Shown here piece by piece: positions 12,483 to 52,441 of a stretch of 64,000 bases of DNA. Where the stretch lies: IMG/VR virus record IMGVR_UViG_3300020045_015293, positions 1 to 64,000 of that record; one strand, written 5' to 3'. A model generated the notes under the pieces. That model was not told the origin of the DNA and did not search any database. It saw only the letters and a program-made list of their open reading frames with translations. This DNA is from a virus. Lineage: Duplodnaviria > Caudoviricetes. Position 1 is the first letter of the stretch. Every line of letters begins with the position of its first letter. The position numbers were made by a program, and so were the translations under genes.

Positions 12483-13943
12483 ATGATTCACGGATTAGAT
12501 GATAAGTATATTCCTTTTAAAGAACGTAAAAAAATACTATTAATAGGAGATGATATAAGAATGACTAGTGGTGTCAGTAGTGTTTTAAGAGATATTGTTA
12601 TTGGTACTGCAATGAAATATAATTGGGTACAAATTGCAGGTGCTATAAATCATCCTGAACAAGGTAAACGTTTGGATTTATCTGAAGATACAAATAAACA
12701 TGCTCAAATAATTGATTCTTCTGTTATAATATACCCTTTTAATGGATATGGGGATTCAAATTTAATTATGCAATTAATAAATATTGAAAAACCAGATGCA
12801 TTAATGTTTATGACAGATCCCAGATATTTTTATTGGTTATTTCAAATTGAGGATGAAATTAGAAAAAAAATTCCAATGATTTATCTAAATATTTGGGATG
12901 ATATTCCTTATCCAATGTATAATAAGTCTTTTTATGAATCTTGTGACGCTTTATTTGCTATTTCAAAACAAACAGAAAATATTAATAAAGTAGTTTTGGG
13001 AGATAAAATTAATAATAAAGTTATAAAATATATACCTCATGGTGTAAATGAAGAAATGTTTTTTCCATTAACTAAAGAGCATGAACAATATATTAATTTT
13101 ATTAAATTTAAAAATAATTTATTAAAAAATAAAGAATATGATTTTATTGTTTTATGGAATAGTAGAAACATTAGAAGAAAATCAACCTCTGATTTATTAT
13201 TAGCATGGAAGATGTTTATTGATACATTAAATGAAGAAGAAGCTCATAAATGTGCTTTAATATTACATACTCAACCTGTTGATGAAAATGGAACAGATTT
13301 ACCAGCAGTAAAAGATATGTTATTTGGTAATGATAAAAAATATAATATTATTTTTTCCTCTAATAGATTACCAACTTCAGAAATGAATTTTTTATACAAT
13401 TTATGTGATGTTAATATTTTAATTTCTTCAAATGAAGGATGGGGGTTAAGTTTAACAGAAGCTATGATGGTTGGAAAACCTATAATAGCAAATGTAACAG
13501 GAGGAATGCAAGATCAAATGAGGTTTGAAGATGAAAATGGTGAATGGATTAAATTTACTGAAGAATTTGGTTCAAATCATAAAGGCAAATATAAAAAATG
13601 TGGAAATTGGGCATTTCCAATATTTCCAAGTAATATTTCATTAATTGGTTCTGTTCCTACTCCTTATATATATGATGATAGGGTTGCACCTGAAGATGTT
13701 GCTAAGAATATTAAATTTGTTTATAATTTAGAAAAATCTGAAAAAGATGATATTGGTAAAATGGCAAGACAATGGGTTACATCAGATGAATCAATGATGT
13801 CAGCACGTTGGATGTGCAAAAATATAATTAATGGAATTGATGAAACTTTAGAAAAATTTGTACCAAGAGTAAATTATGAATTACTTAAAGTAGAAACTCC
13901 TAAACAACCTAAACATTATGTAAAATTTCCTATAGCACAATGA
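12483..13943 (+). CDS. GT4-family glycosyltransferase
   Basis: YIPHGV, SSNEGWGLSLTEAM..GKPII. Confidence 0.9.
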   Translation: MIHGLDDKYIPFKERKKILLIGDDIRMTSGVSSVLRDIVIGTAMKYNWVQIAGAINHPEQGKRLDLSEDTNKHAQIIDSSVIIYPFNGYGDSNLIMQLINIEKPDALMFMTDPRYFYWLFQIEDEIRKKIPMIYLNIWDDIPYPMYNKSFYESCDALFAISKQTENINKVVLGDKINNKVIKYIPHGVNEEMFFPLTKEHEQYINFIKFKNNLLKNKEYDFIVLWNSRNIRRKSTSDLLLAWKMFIDTLNEEEAHKCALILHTQPVDENGTDLPAVKDMLFGNDKKYNIIFSSNRLPTSEMNFLYNLCDVNILISSNEGWGLSLTEAMMVGKPIIANVTGGMQDQMRFEDENGEWIKFTEEFGSNHKGKYKKCGNWAFPIFPSNISLIGSVPTPYIYDDRVAPEDVAKNIKFVYNLEKSEKDDIGKMARQWVTSDESMMSARWMCKNIINGIDETLEKFVPRVNYELLKVETPKQPKHYVKFPIAQ

Positions 13944-41886: not shown

Positions 41887-41905
41887 CGGTTTTTAAAAAG
41901 TATAT

Positions 41906-41914
41906 ATATTTATA
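41906..41914 (+). promoter_or_regulatory. Representative of the ATATTTAT(A) motif (second, probably late, promoter class)
   Basis: Also near 12236, 18909, 36463, 43102, 47359, 51320, 59588, 63742; always intergenic. Confidence 0.6.
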
Positions 41915-41917
41915 GAT

Positions 41918-42022
41918 ATGAAAAATAAAATGTCATATAGATCCTTTAGTTGGTCAATTTGTCCCGGTGCACAACGCGTGCATGGAGAAGATACTAAGGG
42001 CTATAAAGATGTTATTGTATAA
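41918..42022 (+). CDS. Leader peptide 1 MKNKMSYRSFSWSICPGAQRVHGEDTKGYKDVIV
   Basis: Hand translation; follows ATATTTATA and precedes a terminator. Confidence 0.7.
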   Translation: MKNKMSYRSFSWSICPGAQRVHGEDTKGYKDVIV

Positions 42023-42047
42023 AACTATAAATTAACAATATTTTAAG

Positions 42048-42073
42048 AAGCCCATTGAAAAATGGGCTTTTTT
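42048..42073 (+). terminator. Intrinsic terminator (attenuator) ahead of tRNA block 1
   Basis: AAGCCCATT-GAAA-AATGGGCTT plus T tract. Confidence 0.85.
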
Positions 42074-42077
42074 ATTC

Positions 42078-42150
42078 GGTGACTAAGCTAATCTGGTGAA
42101 AGCGTATCCCTGAAGAGGATAAGAGTTCGGGTCGGAACCGAGAGTCACTG
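42078..42150 (+). tRNA. tRNA-Phe(GAA), atypical T-loop GTCGGAA
   Basis: Manual cloverleaf; loop CTGAAGA. Confidence 0.75.
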
Positions 42151-42297
42151 CAAAAATAAAAGTTAAAAGTTAATAGCGGTTCGCATTTAAATGGCAAGTA
42201 GTAGAGGTCCAAACTCATAAATCTATCCAACTCCTGAGGGCTGGAAGGTACCCAAGAGTAATATCAGGCAAGTTAAATGTACTTTTATTTTAAATAC

Positions 42298-42368
42298 GCG
42301 GGTATGGTGCAATGGTAGCATAAGTGATTCCAAACCACTTGATAAGAGTTCGAACCTTTTTATCCGTG
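42298..42368 (+). tRNA. tRNA-Trp(CCA)
   Basis: Manual cloverleaf; loop TTCCAAA. Confidence 0.9.
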
Positions 42369-42373
42369 CAAAT

Positions 42374-42446
42374 GACTCTATGGTGAAATTGAATATCATT
42401 CTTCTTTCCTAAAGAAGCGTTTCAGATTTGAATTCTGATAGAGTTA
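42374..42446 (+). tRNA. tRNA-Arg(CCT)
   Basis: Manual cloverleaf; loop TTCCTAA. Confidence 0.85.
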
Positions 42447-42455
42447 CTAAAATAT

Positions 42456-42528
42456 GGTTCCATGGTGAAATTGAATATCATTCTCGCCTTCTAAGCAAGA
42501 GTTTCGGGTTTAAATCCTGATGGAACTA
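42456..42528 (+). tRNA. tRNA-Arg(TCT)
   Basis: Manual cloverleaf; loop CTTCTAA. Confidence 0.85.
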
Positions 42529-42535
42529 CTAAAAT

Positions 42536-42608
42536 GGACTTATGGTGAAACAGAACATCACTCCACGCTACGGACGTGGCATTTCGGGTTTGAATCCTGA
42601 TAAGTCTA
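42536..42608 (+). tRNA. tRNA-Arg(ACG)
   Basis: Manual cloverleaf; loop CTACGGA. Confidence 0.87.
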
Positions 42609-42700
42609 CTAAAAGAGGAGCGGAAACGTACCATGAAATCCCGAAAGGGAGAATTGGGTCAGATCGATGGCTTTAAAAATTCTAACCTCTTTTTCAATAT

Positions 42701-42773
42701 GGCGGTATGTCCGAGCGATTATAGGTGCTAATCTGCAAAATTAGTTAGGTTGGTTTAACTCCAACTACCGCTT
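42701..42773 (+). tRNA. tRNA-Cys(GCA)
   Basis: Manual cloverleaf; loop CTGCAAA; U73. Confidence 0.85.
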
Positions 42774-42839
42774 CAAAAAATAAATTTTTTTATTCCAAAA
42801 AAAGAATTTAATTTTATATGTTCTTTGAAATTTAAATAT

Positions 42840-42912
42840 CTAGGTGTGGCCGAGATGGGAAGGCACTACTTTTGGGAAGTAGACCAAGCAGGATCGTCAC
42901 CTGTCACCTAGA
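42840..42912 (+). tRNA. tRNA-Pro(TGG)
   Basis: Manual cloverleaf; loop TTTGGGA. Confidence 0.85.
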
Positions 42913-42985
42913 CATAACTACCTAGTCCGACTTAACTTTGAATTTAATTATGTTAAATTTAGGGGATTGTGAGGGGTAGTTAAAT

Positions 42986-43060
42986 GGGGATATAGTATAA
43001 ATTGGAATAGTATGGTGGTTTTGCATACCATCGATCCGGAATCGTGGTCCGGTATCTCCA
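42986..43060 (+). tRNA. tRNA-Ala(TGC)
   Basis: Manual cloverleaf; G3:U70. Confidence 0.85.
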
Positions 43061-43122
43061 CAAAAGTTCTTTGAAAATATTCGTTTTTTATTTTTTCCAC
43101 ATATTTATACCAAATATAAATT

Positions 43123-44037
43123 ATGGGAAGATTAAAATATACTAAAGAATTACTTGAAATAAAAGTTAAAGAAAGTTTTTCATTAAGAGAATTAATGGAA
43201 AAATTAGGGATGAATTATTATTCAAGTCAAAAACATATAAGAAATTTACTTGAAGCTTATAATTTAAATACTTCACATTTTATTGGAATTAAGATACAAA
43301 AACGTAATAATGAAGAAATATTTAAAACTGATTCTAAAGTAAATAGATCAACTTTAAGAAAAAGAATTATTGATAATAATTTAATTCCATATATTTGTCA
43401 AAATTGTAATTGTAATGATGAATGGATGGGTAAAAAAATGCCTTTTATATTAGATCATATTAATGGAATAGGAGAGGATAATAGAATTGAAAATTTAAGA
43501 TGGCTTTGTTCAAATTGTGATTCAATACAGGATACTTATAAATCAAAAAATAAAAATTCGAGTAAATCAAGAAAAAGAATAATTAATAAAATAAACAGAG
43601 AATCTGAAATATTAAATATTAAATTAAATAAACATAAAATTACAGAATTAAAAAATAATGAATTAAAACAACAAATACTAAATTCAAGAGTAGAATTTAA
43701 TGAAATGGGGTGGGGAGTAGAATTAAGTAAAATATTAAATATGACTCCTCAAAATTGTTTGAGAATAACTAAAAAATTATTACCTGAATTTTATAAAGAA
43801 AAATGTTGGAAAAAATTTGAAGATAAAAATAAATTTAAAAGACAAAAAGATTTAGAAATTGAAAAATCAAAATATAATTTAGAAAAAATAAAGAAAAATA
43901 TTAACCTTATAAAAGCATCAAAAATTAATTTTAAAGAAAGAGGTTGTTTTGTAAAAGCTAATCAAATATTAGGATTTAAACAAACTACAGATGCTATTAA
44001 ATGGTTAAAAAGAAATCTCCCCGAATTAATAAATTAA
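43123..44037 (+). mobile_element. Free-standing HNH homing endonuclease inside the tRNA array
   Basis: CQNC..LDHING..DNRIENLRWLCSNCD. Confidence 0.85.
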
Positions 44038-44109
44038 AAACAAAAACATGAAAAATTCCAACAGCCTAACGCTTTAAGGTTACTGACAAAACAGTAGCCC
44101 AGCGTAAAA

Positions 44110-44280
44110 ATGGCTAAAAAAGAAGGCGGTGGTAAAGGTAAAAAAGGTAATAAAAAATACGGCCGCGAAATTAAAAAAAGATCAAATAGAGGAAGTACAA
44201 TTTCTTTATTTGTTCGCAACAGAATTACTGCTGAAGAATATTTTAGAAAAGCAGGATTATCTCTAAAAAGAGATAAATAA
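44110..44280 (+). CDS. 56-aa Lys/Gly/Arg-rich basic protein (below the ORF-track cutoff)
   Basis: Hand translation MAKKEGGGKGKKGNKKYGR.. Confidence 0.6.
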   Translation: MAKKEGGGKGKKGNKKYGREIKKRSNRGSTISLFVRNRITAEEYFRKAGLSLKRDK

Positions 44281-44283
44281 ACA

Positions 44284-44423
44284 GGCTCCGGAAGTCGTGA
44301 GTTCGAGTCTCACCTTGGCCCGAAAGGGCTGAGTAGCTCAGTTGGTAGAGCGCCGGACTAGGTTATCAATTAACGAGGACGTTAGTGCACGCCTACAATG
44401 CAGTAATGCAAGAGGATAACCGC
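44284..44423 (+). ncRNA. Circularly permuted tRNA-like RNA (YrlA-type Y RNA candidate)
   Basis: Order T arm, loop-closed acceptor stem, D arm; open anticodon stem TCCGG/CCGGA. Confidence 0.75.
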
Positions 44424-44428
44424 AAATT

Positions 44429-44501
44429 GGCCCTATAGCTCAGTTGAGAAGAGCTCTGGTTTTACATACCAGGTGCACCCGTTCGAATCGGGTTAGGGCT
44501 A
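44429..44501 (+). tRNA. tRNA-Val(TAC)
   Basis: Manual cloverleaf; loop TTTACAT. Confidence 0.88.
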
Positions 44502-44543
44502 CTTGAATTTTCGAAAAGATCTTTGAAATAAATAACGTTCTTA

Positions 44544-44681
44544 ATCAGGAATAGATTTTACAAAAAATGGGTGGGGTAATAAATTATCAAAAATAATAAA
44601 TAGATCTCCTGCTTGGACTTTAAAATGGGTGAAAAGTAATATTCCAGAAATTGAAAAAATTTGTTTTAAACATTCTTTTTA
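44544..44681 (+). pseudogene. Relic of a homing-endonuclease C-terminal repeat
   Basis: SGIDFTKNGWGNKLSKII..KWVKSNIPE resembles the C-terminal repeats of 43123-44037; no start codon. Confidence 0.6.
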
Positions 44682-44684
44682 AAA

Positions 44685-44758
44685 CGAGGTAACGCATAAA
44701 TGATGGTGCACCTGCCTTCCAAGTAGGAATAGAGCCGGTTTGATCCCGGTTACCTTGA
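44685..44758 (+). tRNA. tRNA-Gly(TCC)
   Basis: Manual cloverleaf; loop CTTCCAA. Confidence 0.8.
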
Positions 44759-44864
44759 CAACATACACATTCCCCTTCTCATAAGAACAGGGTGCTCAGA
44801 GTGTGTTTTTTATATGCCGAGTTGAAAGGGAATCCACAGTGGGGACACTGCCCCTCGGCTCCAT

Positions 44865-44937
44865 GCGAATATAGCACAATGGCTCAGTGTACCGGCTTGC
44901 CAAGTCGGTGATGACAGTTCGAATCTGTTTATTCGCT
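44865..44937 (+). tRNA. tRNA-Gly(GCC)
   Basis: Manual cloverleaf; loop TTGCCAA; U73. Confidence 0.9.
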
Positions 44938-45309
44938 CATAAATAAAAAATTATGATTATTCTTTCTGGTTGATGTCTTGACTCTGTAAAAAGAATCAAT
45001 GATGAATCAAAACAAACAAATTCGACTTTGGAGAGTCGAGTGGGTCCATAAAAATGGATACCGTGCCCCTCATTATTGGGTTGAGGCAAAAGTAGTAATA
45101 AGGAAAGGTAATGTGAATGAAAAGGAAACAAGAAAAAATGCAGTAAAAGCTGCAAAACAACACTCAAGATTAGGTGATTTTCCTAAAACTTGGTATTGTA
45201 AAATTACAGATGTTAGTGAATAACTAATATCTTAAAAATAGATTCCACGCTTCCCATCTCGAAGGATAATGAGAAGAATAATACGTCTTTCAAGAATCTA
45301 TTTTTATAT

Positions 45310-45381
45310 TGCCACTTGGTGTAATGCGTAGCACAAGAGTTTTTGGAGCTCTTTGTTTCAGTTCGAATCTGAAAGTGGTGA
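45310..45381 (+). tRNA. tRNA-Gln(TTG)
   Basis: Manual cloverleaf; loop TTTTGGA. Confidence 0.87.
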
Positions 45382-45389
45382 CTTAAAAT

Positions 45390-45473
45390 GGAGGATAGCA
45401 TGCAAGGTGCATAACTGGCTTTGAACCCCAGGCCAACGCTGATCGCGTTGAGGTTTCGATACTTTATCCTCCG
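45390..45473 (+). tRNA. tRNA-Ser(TGA)
   Basis: Long variable arm CAACGC/GCGTTG; loop TTTGAAC. Confidence 0.78.
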
Positions 45474-45476
45474 CAA

Positions 45477-45668
45477 AAATAAAAAATGAGCTATCGCTAT
45501 ATTAATATAGAGGAAACTCAGGACTCCGTTGTTTAATTTGGAAGACGAAAGTCGTTATACCAAAGAGGGAGAAACTTAAAACAGTCTATATGGATGAACA
45601 ACATGGACAAGGTAAAGGATTAGACAAATGATAGCATAAAACAGAAACCTGGTTACTATTTTTTATTT
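45477..45668 (+). ncRNA. rnpB: Minimal RNase P RNA (catalytic domain, S-domain reduced to one hairpin)
   Basis: GAGGAAACTCAGG and ACAGAAACCTGGTTAC form P4 with bulged U; P1, P2, P3, P5, P6, P7 and L15 GGU all identifiable. Confidence 0.85.
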
Positions 45669-45671
45669 TAT

Positions 45672-45742
45672 CCCGCTATGGTGAAATGATATCACTTCAG
45701 TTTGTGGATCTGAAATTATAAGTTTGAATCTTATTAGTGGGA
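45672..45742 (+). tRNA. tRNA-His(GTG), without G-1:C73
   Basis: Manual cloverleaf; loop TTGTGGA. Confidence 0.8.
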
Positions 45743-45751
45743 CATTAAAAA

Positions 45752-45842
45752 GGAAGTTAAACCCATGATGGCATTGGGGAATACCTGCTAAGTATTTTAT
45801 CGGCTATAAACCGATACGTGAATTCGAGTTTCACAACTTCCG
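45752..45842 (+). tRNA. tRNA-Ser(GCT)
   Basis: Class II cloverleaf; loop CTGCTAA. Confidence 0.9.
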
Positions 45843-45847
45843 CATAT

Positions 45848-45926
45848 TGGATAGTACCGAGCCATCCTGATAAGATGGATAATCGTAGCGGTGTTGTAAA
45901 CGTGGGTTCAAATCCCTCCTATCCAA
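45848..45926 (+). tRNA. Atypical tRNA-Ile(GAT)-like RNA with no D arm
   Basis: Acceptor TGGATAG/CTATCCA, arm CCATC-CTGATAA-GATGG, T arm present. Confidence 0.5.
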
Positions 45927-47384
45927 CTAAACTTCTGAGTCATAAACAAAAAAACCACTCGGGTTCAAGGGAACTATACACCATGCAGAGTAAGTATTTG
46001 CAAATGCTTGACTCATAAGAAAACCTTAAAGTATAGTAGTTGTGAGGGTGACACAAACTTAGAAGTTTAACTTATTTAATTTTTAGTTATGAAATATAAA
46101 AAACTTAAAGTTCCTGAAACATCATCTTGGGATAGAAAACCAACATTTTTTAGACGCTATTTCCCAATTTGGTTAAAAGAATTTGTTGAAGGAATAAAAA
46201 ATATTATTAGATGGATTCCAACTATATATAAAGATAAAGATTGGGATCAATATTTCATAATGAAATTACTTCAAAAGAAAATTGAACATCAAAGAGAATA
46301 TTTAATTTATCATAATCGTCACATAGGAATAGAACAAGATAATAGAAATATGACTTGGGTTCTAAATTTAATTGAGTACCAAATCAATGATTATTATGAA
46401 TTAGAAAAATATGATTATGTTGAATTTGGAAAAAAATTACTTGGACCTTATAAATCTGAGAAATTAGATAATTATTTAGTAAAATATCCAGGAACTATTC
46501 GAAGAGTAAAACAAAAATATCCTAATATAAACTTTGATAATAAAGATAGACTTTCATTGTATGTAGGTATATATAATCAACAAAAATGTAATCATTTAAT
46601 TTGGAAAATAATGGAAGAAAAAAGTGGGCAATGGTGGGATTAATACTTTTTTCCAAAGTTTTTTTCTTACCTTTATGCTAGTAAAAAGGTTATGAAATGA
46701 AAGTAATTCCTAAAATAGAACCTAAAAAAGTTTATACTTTACGAACTTTTTATGATGCAGGTATAATTCATATACATACTTTAGTTTATTTAAGATTTCA
46801 ACATATATTTAATTCTAATATATATTATATACCACATCGTACTAGTGAGTATTTAAAATCATTTAAATTTTTAAATTTAAATTCAGCAAAAAATGCACCA
46901 ATACCAAGTAACCCTGAAATTAAATCATTTGAAAAAGATATTGAAATTAAAATTTGTGGGGAAGTATTTGAAGCTGAAAGAATCGAAGCAGATACTAAAT
47001 TAATATCAGATATTATTGGGGAAAATGGTATTATTTTATTATAATTTTTTAAAATGAATGTAATTCCTGAAACATTTTTGAGAAAGTTAACTATTAGGAA
47101 CAATGCAATAGTTATCCCTAAGAAAATAGATGAATTAAAAGACAGATCTAATGAATATAAACAATTATTTGAAATGCGTTTACTTTCATTTGTTCATGAT
47201 GGAACAATAACAAGAGCGGTGTGTGAATTGTTAAATGATCTTCCTTATGATCATAATTTTAATATTGCACAAGAAAATAGAGAAAAAGGTAGTATTATTT
47301 CATTACCAATAAGTATTTTAAAGTTTGTTAAAGAACCTGAGGTTTCCTAAATTTCGATATATTTATATACAACAAAAAATTATT

Positions 47385-47474
47385 ATGTTTTTACAAAGTT
47401 TGATAAATACAAATATTCTTACGTTAGATTATATGGATAATCTAAATGAGGATAAATCTGTTACATCAGGCTAG
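47385..47474 (+). CDS. Leader peptide 2 MFLQSLINTNILTLDYMDNLNEDKSVTSG, amber stop
   Basis: Hand translation; follows ATATTTATA. Confidence 0.7.
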   Translation: MFLQSLINTNILTLDYMDNLNEDKSVTSG

Positions 47475-47498
47475 ACCAAATCAATATATACCATTCGT

Positions 47499-47533
47499 AA
47501 AAGCCTGATGCCCCCGAAGCGTTAGGCTTTTTT
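47499..47533 (+). terminator. Intrinsic terminator (attenuator) ahead of tRNA block 2
   Basis: AAAGCCTGATGC-CCCCGAA-GCGTTAGGCTTT plus T tract; competing 9-bp antiterminator 47464-72/47502-10. Confidence 0.85.
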
Positions 47534-48325
47534 AGTTCTTTGAAAATATTTTTTTACCCAAAATTTTTTACATAATTTTATATTATAAAATATAAGGTTA
47601 TGAGTCAAGTAATAAATAAAAAAATCAACCTAAATTTAGTAGGTTTAGATGGAAATGCATTTTCTATTATGGGAGCATTTCAAAAACAAGCCCGTAAAGA
47701 AGGATGGAGTAAAGAGGAAATTGATGCTGTGATAACAGAGATGCAATCTGGAGATTATAATCATTTGTTACAAACAGCAATGGCACATTGTGAAGATCCA
47801 GAAGATGAAGAAATGGATGAAAATTATGTAACTGATGAAGATGGAGATTTTAATTATTAAAATACAAATTTATGTATTTAAATACACATAAAGATCGTGG
47901 TGAATCAACTTACCAATTAGCCAATAATGTAGGCGATAGAGGAGGATGGGTTAAATTTGATTGGGATAAAGATGTTCAAGCTGTTAAACCACATTATGAA
48001 AATACAATTGTTGTATTAAAAAATGGTACACATTATTTGTTATTTGGAAGAGGATATGGTGTATAAAAATTAATTTTTATGGCTAAATTATATACAATAG
48101 AAGAAATTAAAACATATATAACATCACAAGATTCACTTGGTGATGCCTTATATAACTTGAATGAAGATAATGTTGATAAAGCAGTATGGGAAGATAAATT
48201 TCAAGCTATAAAAGAAGAAATAATGGATGATAGTTTTGATGGTAATGAAGATGAATTAATGAGAGAAACAGAAGAACTATTTAAGAAAAGATATAAATTT
48301 GATTATTACGATAAATATTAAAAAT

Positions 48326-48397
48326 GGACTGGTAACTTAAAGGCAAAGTAGCATCCTGTTAAGATGAAGAGTGTGGTATCGTGATCCACCCAGTCCG
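48326..48397 (+). tRNA. tRNA-Asn(GTT)
   Basis: Manual cloverleaf; loop CTGTTAA. Confidence 0.82.
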
Positions 48398-48480
48398 CAA
48401 AAAAATTAATAGTACTCATAGTTTAAAACTGTTATAAAGGAGTAGTTAAATTAGAATATGGAGACCATATTTAGCTATTA

Positions 48481-48491
48481 GTTCTTTAACA
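48481..48491 (+). promoter_or_regulatory. boxA-like antitermination element GTTCTTT(G/A)A; representative copy
   Basis: Also near 42820, 43066, 47535, 49457, 50954, 62741, with a variant at 62944; confined to the RNA island. Confidence 0.6.
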
Positions 48492-48509
48492 TTATAAATT
48501 TTAAAAAAA

Positions 48510-48580
48510 GGGATAACGTCCAGGGCAGATCACAACGACTGTAAATCGTAGGTGTTGAGTTTCGATTACTCATTATCCCA
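48510..48580 (+). tRNA. tRNA-Tyr(GTA), short variable loop
   Basis: Loop CTGTAAA; weak D arm. Confidence 0.7.
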
Positions 48581-48706
48581 CTTAAATAAAAAATTCTTTT
48601 TCCAAAATTATTTGTTTAATTTTATAAAAGTAGAAATTTTTCAAAAACCAAACTGTTATGTTGGGAAAAAATATCTAAACAATATTTTTGACTAAGTAAA
48701 CATAAC

Positions 48707-49042
48707 ATGAAAGTAATATCTCAATCCTATTTTAGAAATCAATATATTCGAGAAATAATTGATAACTTTAATTGGGAAAGAATTCATAAAGTGATGGTTT
48801 TTCTTCAATGGAAATATTTAAATGAAGAAATTCCTGAAATTGATGATTTAAAATTATTAAGTAAAAATTTACTTGACAATATTTGGTTATCAACAACTAA
48901 ACAACAGAATGAAACATGGAGCATAAAATCAGGTGGTTTTAAAGCAACAGCTTCATACAATTCAAATAAAAAAAGAATTGACTTTTTAAAATTGGAATTT
49001 ATACTTAGTGATTATTATAAAGAAGAAAATGATGAAGGATAA
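48707..49042 (+). CDS. Hypothetical protein, paralog of 3712-4077
   Basis: IIDNFNWERIHKVMVFLQW. Confidence 0.7.
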   Translation: MKVISQSYFRNQYIREIIDNFNWERIHKVMVFLQWKYLNEEIPEIDDLKLLSKNLLDNIWLSTTKQQNETWSIKSGGFKATASYNSNKKRIDFLKLEFILSDYYKEENDEG

Positions 49043-49902
49043 AGTAACTATAGTAACAGCTGATTGGAAAGATATTGATGGATTAGCTAATGCTTTTAAA
49101 AAAGCTATAAGAAAATTAGGAGCTCATATTTATAATCATCCTGATTTTGAAGGTAGCGATACTTATGGTTTTATTGTTAGTGATAAAAAATTGAGTAGAA
49201 AGAAAATTAAAGATAATTATTGTATTCCAAAAGAAGAAATAGATTATATTTATCCAATTGGAGCATAAAAAACATGAATAGGGAAGAAAGAGAAGAAAGA
49301 ATACAACGTGCCAAAGAAGAATTTGGTGAACAAGTTGTAGCAGAAGTTAGAGAAGTTGTATCAATGAGTGATCCTGATGGAGCTTGGAGTACATATAGAG
49401 ATTTTGAAAAGTATGATCATTGTGCATGTATTGAAATGATTTATTTTGAATAAAAAGTTCTTTGAAGACAAGAACCTGATAACTAACAGGCACTTTTAAA
49501 AGTTAGGAAACAGGGAATATGCGGTGCCAGCATGTGGATAGCTACTAAATAATATTAAAAGTAGTTCCGGTGAAAGGATGTTTCACAACCAATCACTGAA
49601 AAAATAAAAATGAATAATAGAACGTTTTGGACGTCTGAACGACAGCTCGAAAGAGTTATTACGGTTCCCTATTATTCATTAACTTGATTAAAATTATTAG
49701 GTGGTAATGAGTAGAGTTACATCGCGTGGAATGGTTCCACACCCAACTCAGGATTAGGCTCTGCCGTTCAATTCGGCCAGTTAATCTCTACCAAATTTTC
49801 CCCTAAAATAATTATAAATTATTGGATGGTTATAAATCAGTTTCATCGCTAATGGTCAATTTGCAAAAAATACTGATTTAAATTTTCCTCCAAAATTAAT
49901 TT

Positions 49903-49975
49903 GGCCCTGTCGAATAATGTGTTAGTTCGTTGCCCTTTCACGGCAAAAATTTCGGTTCAAATCCGTGCGGGGCTA
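49903..49975 (+). tRNA. tRNA-Glu(TTC)
   Basis: Manual cloverleaf; loop CTTTCAC. Confidence 0.87.
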
Positions 49976-49997
49976 CTAAAAGAAAAAGGTTGCGTAA

Positions 49998-50585
49998 ATG
50001 AATATATTAAAATTAGATGATTTACCTCTATATGACTTAGGTAATACAATTCAAATATCAGGAATGATATTACAAGGTAATGATAAAACTTACAATGTAT
50101 TTTTTCCAGATAAAAAAATTGAGAATCCTGAATTAGTAGAAGTAAATGAAGATGAATGGAAAAAATTGTTGCTACAATTAGATACTTTAGAAACAGTTTT
50201 ATTTCCAGGTAATCCAGGTGCTAAAATAGTTGTACGTAAATCTCAACGTATAATCGAATCAGCAATGATTTGGAAAGTTTTTAGGAGAGATAATTATACT
50301 TGTCAGTATTGTGGTGCAAGAGATAAACCATTGTCAGTTGATCATGTAGTTCTTTGGGAAGATATGGGTGGAACTGTTGAAGAAAATTTATTAACTGCAT
50401 GTTCTGCATGTAATATGAAAAGAGGTAATATGAGGTTTTTAGATTGGTTGGATAGCGATTATTATAATAAATGTTTGAAAAATTTTGGTAATGAAGATCA
50501 ACAATATAATCAAGATAAAAAATTGTTAGATTTTTGGATAATAGCAAGAGATTTACCATTACGTACAAATAAAAGAGGGAGGTAA
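49998..50585 (+). CDS. HNH endonuclease domain protein
   Basis: RRDNYTCQYCG..VDHV..NLLTACSACN. Confidence 0.88.
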   Translation: MNILKLDDLPLYDLGNTIQISGMILQGNDKTYNVFFPDKKIENPELVEVNEDEWKKLLLQLDTLETVLFPGNPGAKIVVRKSQRIIESAMIWKVFRRDNYTCQYCGARDKPLSVDHVVLWEDMGGTVEENLLTACSACNMKRGNMRFLDWLDSDYYNKCLKNFGNEDQQYNQDKKLLDFWIIARDLPLRTNKRGR

Positions 50586-50876
50586 TTATGAATACTATAT
50601 TAATAATACTTTGTAGTTGTTTATTTCTTATTCAGTTAGGATTAATATTAAGATATTTTAATATTGAAAAAAATAATGATTGGAATTTTTTAGGACAAGG
50701 AGGATTGGTAAATTTAATTGCATACCCTATAATGGTATGGATAATGTTTTTAATGTGGAAAGAAAGTGAGAATTATTATAAAAAAATAGTTGAAAAAAAT
50801 AAAATAGAACAAAAATATTCACCAACTTATACTTCAGAAAAGGGGGATACTTTGTTTACAAGAGTAAAATAAATAT

Positions 50877-50944
50877 GGAGGGGTAGCTCAGAGTAGAGCA
50901 CTGTCTAAACAACAGGGGTCGGTAATTCAGTTTGCCCCCTTCCG
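50877..50944 (+). pseudogene. Degenerate tRNA (4-bp anticodon stem, 6-nt T-loop)
   Basis: Acceptor and D arm intact; anticodon arm 15 nt. Confidence 0.5.
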
Positions 50945-51145
50945 CAATAATTAGTTCTTTAAAATATGGAGATGAATGTTTGTAATAGAACATTTTGGTT
51001 ATTCGGTTAATCCATCTCCACTACATGCCGGGAAAGCAAAAACATACTGTTTTAAACTTTCCCCGAAAGGTGGTAACTAAACAGTTACATCGCAATACAA
51101 TCAACATTTGTTAAGATTCCCGCAAGGGTCCCGGCACCATTTTGA

Positions 51146-51237
51146 AACATTCGCGCCTGATGGTTAATGATCATTAAGACTGTGAGGCTAGCAGTTGACC
51201 CCAACACTTAAGTCAGTGGGGTATGGCGACGAATGTT
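51146..51237 (+). ncRNA. Multi-branched RNA with a GNCGAANG helix (Y RNA candidate)
   Basis: Closing stem AACATTCG-CGCC/GGCG-A-CGAATGTT. Confidence 0.5.
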
Positions 51238-51241
51238 AAAC

Positions 51242-51316
51242 AGCCACGTAGTTTACTGTGTGTAATCGGGAAATTGTCGATTTCCGTCGGGGCGAGTTCG
51301 ATTCTCGTCGTGGCTG
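51242..51316 (+). tRNA. tRNA-Asp(GTC)
   Basis: Manual cloverleaf; loop TTGTCGA. Confidence 0.8.
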
Positions 51317-51484
51317 CATATATTTATACACCCACAGAATGAATCTAACTTAAGGGTACTAGTAAAAACTTAAGGTAATGCGTTTGAAATTTGGTTCAGG
51401 TTTCGCCTGTGTGGGTGTATAAAAATCTCAATGTGTAAATTAACTAGTGCATGACACCGTAGCGTAGAAAGTTGAGATGAATAT

Positions 51485-51558
51485 ACTGATATAGCTCAGA
51501 GGTTTAGAGCAGGATGCTTATACCATCAAGGTCGGGATTTCAAAATTCTCTATCAGTA
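51485..51558 (+). tRNA. tRNA-Ile(TAT)
   Basis: Manual cloverleaf; loop CTTATAC. Confidence 0.8.
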
Positions 51559-51575
51559 CAACAAAATTTTTATAT

Positions 51576-51655
51576 CGTGGGGGAGTGGAAAGGACACACA
51601 AACCATTCAAGCCTCATAAGCTTTGAGATAGCCAGTTCGATTCTGGTCCCCGCAA
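51576..51655 (+). tRNA. tRNA-Met(CAT), C1:A72, enlarged D arm
   Basis: Loop CTCATAA; canonical T arm. Confidence 0.65.
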
Positions 51656-51739
51656 CAAACTATTCTTATAATAGTATGAATTGGAAAATAAATTTCCAAT
51701 TAAAAAACTCCCGAATTCATTCTTGATATAGGGGAGTTA

Positions 51740-51811
51740 TGGCGCAGCCTCAGGTGAGGAATTTTGGCTCATATCCTAAATTAGACATGGTTCAATACCA
51801 GTATGCGCTAC
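51740..51811 (+). tRNA. Atypical CAT-anticodon tRNA-like RNA
   Basis: Acceptor TGGCGCA/TGCGCTA; loop CTCATAT; weak T stem. Confidence 0.45.
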
Positions 51812-51953
51812 ACCAGATGTAATAGTGTAAGCTAGAAGTACATCAGCAATTGGGATCTTACAATCCGTGAATTGTGGTTTAGGTTAACACGAAGGTAACG
51901 AAGTGCTTTAAGTCACCTAGCAGTTAGAATACCACTAGAAGTTCTAACAAAAT

Positions 51954-52028
51954 GCCTCTTTAGTAGTAATTGCAGCAGCTATCCGCACTTGTAATGCGGG
52001 GGTAACAGTTTGAATCTGTTAAGGGGCT
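51954..52028 (+). tRNA. tRNA-Thr(TGT)
   Basis: Manual cloverleaf; loop CTTGTAA. Confidence 0.82.
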
Positions 52029-52088
52029 CAAAGAAATTAATATAAGTTTTATGACCCCCCTGGTTACAAACAAAATATTAGTTTCTTT

Positions 52089-52440
52089 ACCGGTTACGGG
52101 TTTATTTTGTTGGTTTTTATCCCGTAAAAATTAAAAGAAAAACCAATAGAATTAAACCCGATGTTAAACGCTGTTATAAAATTTTAGCGATGAAAGTTAA
52201 ATATGTGAAATTACAAAGCGGAGAGGTAATAATGTTTCCTCCCGTTATTGAACACGATACATTCAAATACCTGAACCCAATAACGGCAGGATTTTGTTGC
52301 ATCGGAAATGATAAAGTAGAGTGCTTTGGAGAAAGTTACTCACTCAAATTGAAGGCAGACGAAAAGCAAGATACATTAGATGCAACAAAACATTATTTTG
52401 GAATAGAGGCGATGATAAAAATTTTATAATTGCGTTTAAC
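52089..52440 (+). mobile_element. attC-like hairpin plus GTT..AAC inverted-repeat-flanked gene cassette (ORF 52190-52429)
   Basis: Arms 52097-117/52139-160; 23-bp IR 52163-185/52418-440. Confidence 0.55.
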
Positions 52441-52441
52441 A

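Follow-up and report, generated by a model that had tools for sequence, protein, structure and literature searches.

Why phages carry tRNA genes is debated; among the proposed reasons (PMC10264068) are codon compensation, the substitution of host tRNAs that have been degraded, and evasion of defences which cleave tRNAs. The locus described here raises a narrower question, namely what a compact unit made up of a promoter-like box, a 29-codon open reading frame (ORF) and a strong hairpin does ahead of the second of two tRNA blocks in a large phage genome. We propose that this unit (47357-47537) is a ribosome-mediated, that is leader-peptide, transcription attenuator for the second block, a reading to which we assign a probability of roughly 0.7, and that the phage probably transcribes more of the block-2 tRNAs when decoding is slow. 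The proposal is built upon the parts of the unit, their alternative pairings, the covariation of these pairings and the codon roster of the ORF, all of which were established from the sequence and by comparison with related phages.

The contig and its two tRNA blocks

The window, i.e. the whole stretch of DNA that was analysed, is the first 64 kb of the 88.6-kb viral contig IMGVR_UViG_3300020045_015293 (Duplodnaviria; Caudoviricetes). The contig has a G+C content of ca. 25% and all of its genes are on the + strand. Among the proteins it encodes are a DNA polymerase of family B, HNH endonucleases, a GroEL-like chaperonin and a Ro60-like protein; by its polymerase the nearest cultured phage is a Microcystis phage with 32% identity, which gives a distant placement only. 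With default settings ARAGORN revealed 21 tRNAs on the contig, to which a lower threshold added Phe, Asn, Tyr and Met. Block 1 (42078-45843) contains the tRNAs for F, W, R, C, P, A, V, G, Q, H and S. The composition of block 2 (Table 1) is as listed in a preliminary description made from the sequence alone (Asn, Tyr, Glu, Asp, Ile, Met, Thr, Lys, three for Leu and a CUA suppressor), with support that is unequal between the tRNAs. Those for Asn, Tyr and Met were missed by ARAGORN at its default setting and are present at the lower threshold; tRNA-Asn is confirmed by Rfam (44 bits), and Tyr and Met are based upon low-threshold ARAGORN together with synteny with relatives. The general tRNA model scores poorly for several tRNAs of this contig (Tyr, Met, Thr, Asp), and a tRNA-Gly(UCC) at 44685-44758 was matched by Rfam and missed by ARAGORN at both the default and the 95% thresholds.

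The first tRNA of block 2 is located about 800 nt 3' of the putative attenuator, past three small ORFs. The 86-aa protein specified by the first of these (47600-47860) has relatives in 31 viral contigs ranging from 23 to 70% G+C, where the context is unrelated: none of the 31 is syntenic or adjoins tRNAs. No relatives of the flanking proteins encoded at 47054-47350 and 46089-46643 were found in viral contigs, and the sole match to the former, a 98-aa protein, among 5.8 billion proteins was the protein itself. A blastn comparison of the attenuator region and tRNA block 1 with the phage collection yielded nothing useful.

Table 1. Features of the proposed attenuator, its surroundings and its sister unit (contig positions, which are also those of the window up to 64,000).
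Feature	Position	Strand	Description
Promoter-like box	47357..47367	+	ATATATTTATA, 11 nt, TAnnTTTA-type -7 element; 17 nt 5' of leader ATG; putative promoter
Leader ORF	47385..47474	+	29 codons, ATG at 47385, TAG stop at 47472-47474; roster stretch codons 6-24 (47400-47456); ortholog in L050 at 1934-2020
Region 1	47397..47404	+	Pairs with 47465-47472 in full-length minimum free energy fold, 8 bp, 2 G-U; encloses sensor codons
Inner hairpin	47414..47454	+	Inside ORF, 8 + 9 bp; perfect 9-bp core, 47424-32 with 47437-45
Region 2	47464..47472	+	Antiterminator 5' strand CAUCAGGCU; overlaps last codons and first base of TAG
Region 3	47502..47510	+	AGCCUGAUG; 5' arm of terminator core, partner of region 2
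Intrinsic terminator	47499..47537	+	13-pair hairpin 47499-47531, -16.6 kcal/mol, then T run
Second promoter-like motif	47558..47584	+	CCAAAAT, 8 nt, TAATTTTATA; 3' of terminator, before next gene
Three small ORFs	47600..48321	+	86, 64 and 80 aa, between attenuator and first block-2 tRNA; without Pfam family
tRNA block 2	48326..55204	+	Asn, Tyr, Glu, Asp, Ile(UAU), Met, Thr, CUA suppressor, Lys, Leu(UAG), Leu(UAA), Leu(CAA); small genes interspersed; ARAGORN, Rfam
Sister unit (leader 1)	41904..42075	+	Box, 34-codon ORF 41918-42022, terminator 42045-42072; adjoins tRNA-Phe at 42078
Bipartite-motif sites	16565, 29256, 38473, 39719, 47558, 48602, 64221, 66857, 77497		Nine sites of the second motif

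Codon roster, competing pairings and ribosome position

The box ATATATTTATA is situated in the gap which separates the leader ATG from the upstream gene (stop at 47350), and is also found 5' of leader 1 (41904) and of the leaders in the related phages L033, L035, L038, L039 and L050. The motif TATATTTATA occurs 12 times on the + strand and four times on the - strand versus approximately three expected; these occurrences are strand-biased and mostly intergenic. The TAnnTTTA element, which the box has in common with a second promoter-like motif considered below, resembles the -7 box of the Bacteroidota.

The stretch L6-K24 of the leader uses all and only the nine amino acids of block 2, as the preliminary description had it, and the coordinates given there proved to be correct throughout. 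This is the sole run of at least 19 residues in the six frames of the 88.6-kb contig which is restricted to these nine amino acids and includes them all. The match extends to anticodons, with a cognate codon in the leader ORF for 11 of the 11 sense anticodons of block 2 (P ~0.003); Ile(UAU) is represented by ATA, and the three Leu isoacceptors by TTG, TTA and CTA/CTT. In both amino acids (9/9) and sense anticodons (11/11) the regulatory codons thus match what the regulated genes would supply. The four different Leu codons reported earlier were found in the order TTA, TTG, CTT, TTA, CTA; TTG, CTT and CTA between them reach the separate Leu isoacceptors. Several leader codons are rare in this phage (TTG 7%, CTT 7% and CTA 4% of Leu; ACG 2% of Thr; GAG 6% of Glu), and the mean log RSCU of the leader has P=0.024. 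The earlier caution that such a residue set is common in AT-rich ORFs is well taken: the amino-acid match of the whole ORF is by itself modest (P ~0.01). Most sensor codons are present once or twice and there are no runs, the regulatory codons of the his and trp leaders being arranged in runs. For one sensor codon, ATT, block 2 lacks a cognate tRNA, and the ORF ends in a non-roster tail (S, V, T, S, G).

It had also been claimed that leaders 1 and 2 partition the 20 amino acids between them. This applies to the core stretches; the complete leader-1 ORF contains 19 of the 20 amino acids, and lacks, as had been noted, Leu alone. The Leu tRNAs are found at the far end of block 2.

The amber codon is an uncommon stop in this phage, being used by two of the 116 long ORFs of the contig. 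One of these two, the gene at 59753-60232, is preceded by another box of the ATATATTTATA type, followed immediately by an 11-codon ORF which itself ends in TAG (59587-59640).

The 3' end of the leader ORF can pair with the terminator. The antiterminator previously described, CATCAGGCT (47464-47472) with AGCCTGATG (47502-47510), was recovered as nine perfect base pairs whose 5' strand overlaps the amber stop. Alone, this 2:3 helix has a free energy of -12.6 kcal/mol; the duplex value, -16.1 kcal/mol, was equalled by none of ~3000 random windows (P<3e-4). It would compete with a terminator hairpin which is indeed present, the pair count being 13, including two G-U and four A-U, rather than the 12 first given. 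With -3.7 kcal/mol on its own the 1:2 helix is weak, and in the truncated fold the 2:3 pairing prevails over it; the hairpin within the ORF is a candidate RNA polymerase pause hairpin. From box to terminator the unit is significantly structured (z = -3.2). A search of 47300-47650 against Rfam revealed no T-box, no amino-acid operon leader (Trp, His, Leu, Thr) and no other cis-regulatory match, either at the gathering threshold or at E values up to 1, and over the terminator chance-level sRNA matches only. The possibility that the ORF region is a decayed tRNA or another known RNA gene was rejected using low-threshold ARAGORN and Rfam.

To place the ribosome on this RNA we simulated its footprint, folding the transcript as far as the terminator loop, before the 3' arm, with a stretch of 30 nt blocked (the assumed ribosome footprint). 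With the A site at any of codons 2-22 the 9-bp 2:3 antiterminator formed; once it was placed at codon 24 or beyond, the stop included, the 2:3 helix was reduced to 0 bp. L050 behaved in the same way, and thus the earlier suggestion that stalling in the sensor frees the antiterminator, and that complete translation occludes it, held for both phages in the simulation. Judged by the simulated stall positions, the roster codons occupy the zone in which a lagging ribosome would permit read-through, and the non-roster tail is the part which would need to be covered for termination. When region 2 was placed by energy alone in six units, residues belonging to the downstream tRNA set made up 115 of 141 (82%) in the sensor zone versus 26 of 57 (46%) in the tail (Fisher P=9e-7). 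Full-length equilibrium folds with a blocked footprint always kept the terminator, because it is the more stable hairpin, and truncated folds were used instead. In the truncated fold of RNA free of ribosomes the antiterminator is already preferred. Since untranslated RNA forms the antiterminator and the 1:2 helix is weak, termination may require the timely arrival of a ribosome, and read-through may be the default state.

Leaders and terminators in related phages

Relatives were collected through the Ro60-like protein, which led to contigs whose tRNA arrays are syntenic, 12 of them viral and 8 from metagenomes; two additional contigs were found through a conserved tRNA-Phe segment. L033, L048, L050 and L055 stem from lake samples. 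Where upstream sequence is present, the arrays of these relatives are headed by the box, a short ORF, a spacer of 20-36 nt and a strong terminator, with the first tRNA usually 3-90 nt past the terminator.

One metagenome relative, L050, has a Ro60 protein with 64% identity to that of the window and the same gene order, CUA suppressor included. Here the same box precedes a 28-codon ORF (1934-2020) with a TAG stop and a terminator (2049-2083). Its start codon is a GTG which aligns with the ATG of the window, and the residues which come next, Phe and Leu, are identical in the two. An ORF with the same frame, start position and amber stop has thus been kept. The peptide has diverged, but all nine amino acids served by its array are still present in it, as are cognate codons for 10 of the 11 sense anticodons. 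Its terminator arms are not those of the window, and the 3' end of the ORF has changed to match: region 2 (UUCAGGAGC) pairs with region 3 (GCUUCUGAA), the pairing having been kept via changes on both strands. A hairpin of different sequence occupies the same relative place in the ORF as the inner hairpin of the window. We count L050 as a replication because the hypothesis was fixed before this locus was seen. An amber stop together with a CUA tRNA in the array is common to the window and L050 and is treated as a single observation because the two units are homologous. A pattern search of viral contigs for more orthologs of leader 2 gave no matches.

Under TAG read-through the leader frame of the window would be open across the spacer and the terminator, to 47541. 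Further in-frame TAG codons follow the leader stop at 47520 in the window (region 47472-47543), and at 2045 and 2087 in L050 (region 2018-2092); by a rough estimate these are not statistically unusual, and they were left out of the evidence. Compared with the L033-type phages (L033:8066-8317), the window (45844-48325) and L050 possess extra genes between the His/Ser tRNAs and tRNA-Asn, and the second leader is confined to this split lineage (window and L050).

The short leader ORFs of the related phages (L033-L055) form non-homologous families, and the roster property recurs in L050 and in five further families. Where an array is undivided its leader contains all 20 amino acids; where the arrays are split, so are the rosters. 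Phages L033, L035, L048 and L055 each carry one undivided array behind a 44-codon leader containing all 20 amino acids. The leaders of L038 and L039 (L038:191-346, L039:4379-4519), which are homologous to one another, also contain all 20 and are distinguished by in-frame indels (3 and 12 nt). L039 lacks the 12-nt segment and with it the Trp codon of L038, and has a Trp codon at a new position, which suggests selection on codon content and not on peptide sequence. In real proteins of these loci, 0.6-1.8% of windows of such lengths contain all 20 amino acids.

In L040-L043, L051 and L053 two arrays divide the tRNAs between them in another way, and are located behind near-identical promoter regions. 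The first leader of the L040 type lacks C, E and L and covers 13 of the 13 amino acids of its array; the second (L040b) covers nine of nine (S, T, C, H, L, D, M, E, V), and in four phages this ORF shows only two substitutions, both synonymous. Approximately 80 nt 5' of both leaders are near-identical (L040:2624-2713 and 13456-13545; also in L041-L043), i.e. the promoter region is duplicated per array. L045 and L047 represent a further leader family, in which 10 of 11 amino acids of the array are matched. On the reverse strand of L047 (6155-6244, reversed coordinates) ARAGORN identified within the array a tRNA with the anticodon UUA, resembling an ochre suppressor; the leader of this array ends in TAA. 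Complementarity of the antiterminator type was above background in eight of the eight units tested, with P values from <3e-4 to 0.12.

Downstream of the terminator lies the second promoter-like motif. This bipartite sequence, CCAAAAT, 8 nt, TA(A/C)(T/C)TTTA(T/C)A, is found at nine contig sites (Table 1), most of them directly 5' of genes; it differs from the ATATATTTATA box which heads the leaders, the TAnnTTTA element being common to both. The preliminary description had warned of internal CCAAA promoters, and the warning stands: because there are promoter-like copies at 47558 and 48602, block 2 is probably also transcribed independently of the attenuator. L050 has a further TAnnTTTA box at the equivalent place 3' of its terminator. 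In leader 1 and most relatives, unlike block 2, the terminator adjoins the first tRNA, which leaves no room for a promoter after it.

Proposed mechanism, alternatives and known systems

According to the attenuation model, transcripts would start at the 47357 box or arrive from upstream, and a ribosome would translate the 29-codon ORF, in which codons 6-23/24 hold at least one codon for each of the 11 downstream sense tRNAs. If decoding is fast, the ribosome would reach the last codons or the TAG in time to cover region 2 (47464-72), 3:4 pairing would take place and the polymerase would stop at 47531-37. Any slow codon would cause the ribosome to lag, upon which regions 2 and 3 would pair (9 bp), no terminator would form, and transcription would proceed into the three small genes and the tRNAs. 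As the phage tRNAs accumulate decoding would become faster and termination would return, a negative feedback by which tRNA supply would be matched to demand. Here we infer that the ORF is translated, that transcription and translation are coupled, that the unit responds to a shortage of tRNAs, and how large its effect would be relative to that of the 47558 promoter.

A more ambitious version, which we advance tentatively and consider doubtful, is that the two attenuators form the sensing layer of an inducible translation-rescue programme and that the amber stop of leader 2 also reads the phage CUA suppressor. The phage would check for each codon whether the host is still decoding its messages; after a loss of host tRNAs, e.g. 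to anticodon nucleases or shut-off, it would replace precisely that half of the tRNA set which is missing. Accumulation of the CUA suppressor would allow ribosomes to pass the TAG into the terminator arm, by which block 2 would be locked on. In L050 the frame is open for at least 40 further codons upon TAG read-through.

The switch may be real but sense general translation capacity, or the coupling of transcription and translation, with the codon roster incidental or secondary. We regard this as unlikely, since the roster tracks array content, split and unsplit, in several non-homologous leader families, is restricted to the sensor zone, employs rare isoacceptor-specific codons, and in L039 retains a Trp codon at a new position after deletion of the one present in L038. 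What speaks for a general sensor is that a single slow codon, in a roster where most occur once or twice, may add little delay, and that an RNA which defaults to the antiterminator when untranslated would report the arrival of a ribosome and not which codon is slow.

It is quite improbable, in our estimate, that the hairpin 47499-47531 is a plain terminator of the upstream unit (block 1 plus the genes at 46089-47350), the ORF a chance frame in an AT-rich spacer, and the 47558 motif the element which drives block 2. Residues L, I, N, D, E, K, Y, T and M are what AT-rich DNA encodes, the match of the whole ORF has a P value of only ~0.01, and a promoter-like motif does lie 3' of the terminator; moreover, as there is no terminator between block 1 and this hairpin, the latter also ends the block-1 unit. 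However, the ordinary terminators of the contig (n=3) are found 22-50 nt past a gene with no box between, whereas the two ahead of the tRNA blocks are ~150 nt past the previous gene (148 nt at block 2), with the conserved box and a small ORF in the gap. A chance frame also accounts poorly for the retention of frame, start position, stop type and roster in the diverged L050, and for an arm complement within the ORF (P<3e-4) which co-varies with the terminator. We leave a similarly slight chance to a stand-alone product acting in trans, either a ~160-nt small RNA or the 29-residue peptide, for which the rnTrpL RNA and peTrpL peptide of Sinorhizobium are precedents (PMC6614838, PMC7298713). Such a product would be compatible with attenuation, and the unit is self-contained, with a strong terminator and the significant structure noted above; but what the window and L050 have in common is the composition and the RNA pairings, the peptide sequence being poorly conserved, and no Rfam match was found.

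If the attenuation model is correct, a leader which lists the codons of its own array implies that the phage measures decoding speed and tunes its tRNA supply by feedback, extending textbook leader-peptide attenuation from amino-acid supply to tRNA supply. The signature of box, roster ORF, arm complement and terminator should be usable to annotate tRNA transcription units in uncultured phages, and could predict which tRNAs a phage treats as limiting. Phages with one 20-amino-acid leader and one array, and those with complementary leaders and two arrays, represent natural experiments. Full-text searches of a paper library revealed no description of leader-peptide attenuation of tRNA genes.

Among known systems, the T-box riboswitches also employ transcription attenuation with a competing terminator and antiterminator, and also read the state of tRNA. 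They bind uncharged tRNA directly, via a specifier codon and the T-box sequence, without translation; the element described here, in contrast, contains a conserved ORF and has no T-box match in Rfam. The resemblance to the amino-acid attenuators of enterobacteria (trpL, hisL, leuL, pheL, and the multivalent leaders of ilvGMEDA, responding to Leu, Val and Ile, and of thr, responding to Thr and Ile) is more extensive: a short promoter-proximal ORF which contains regulatory codons, an intrinsic terminator, an antiterminator competing for the 5' arm of the terminator, a stop placed so that the terminating ribosome masks region 2 and, in the multivalent ones, more than one amino acid sensed. Unlike these, the present unit is phage-encoded, has no sequence similarity to the Rfam leader families, and would regulate tRNAs and a few small ORFs rather than biosynthetic enzymes. 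Its sensor covers nine amino acids and 11 anticodons, mostly by single codons and not by runs, and its feedback would operate via tRNA abundance rather than amino-acid synthesis. The leader pheM of the E. coli pheST operon (phenylalanyl-tRNA synthetase), with its run of Phe codons, is likewise a leader-peptide attenuator for part of the decoding machinery, and responds to how much charged tRNA is available; pheM, however, senses one amino acid and controls a synthetase, whereas here the genes under control would be those of the tRNAs themselves.
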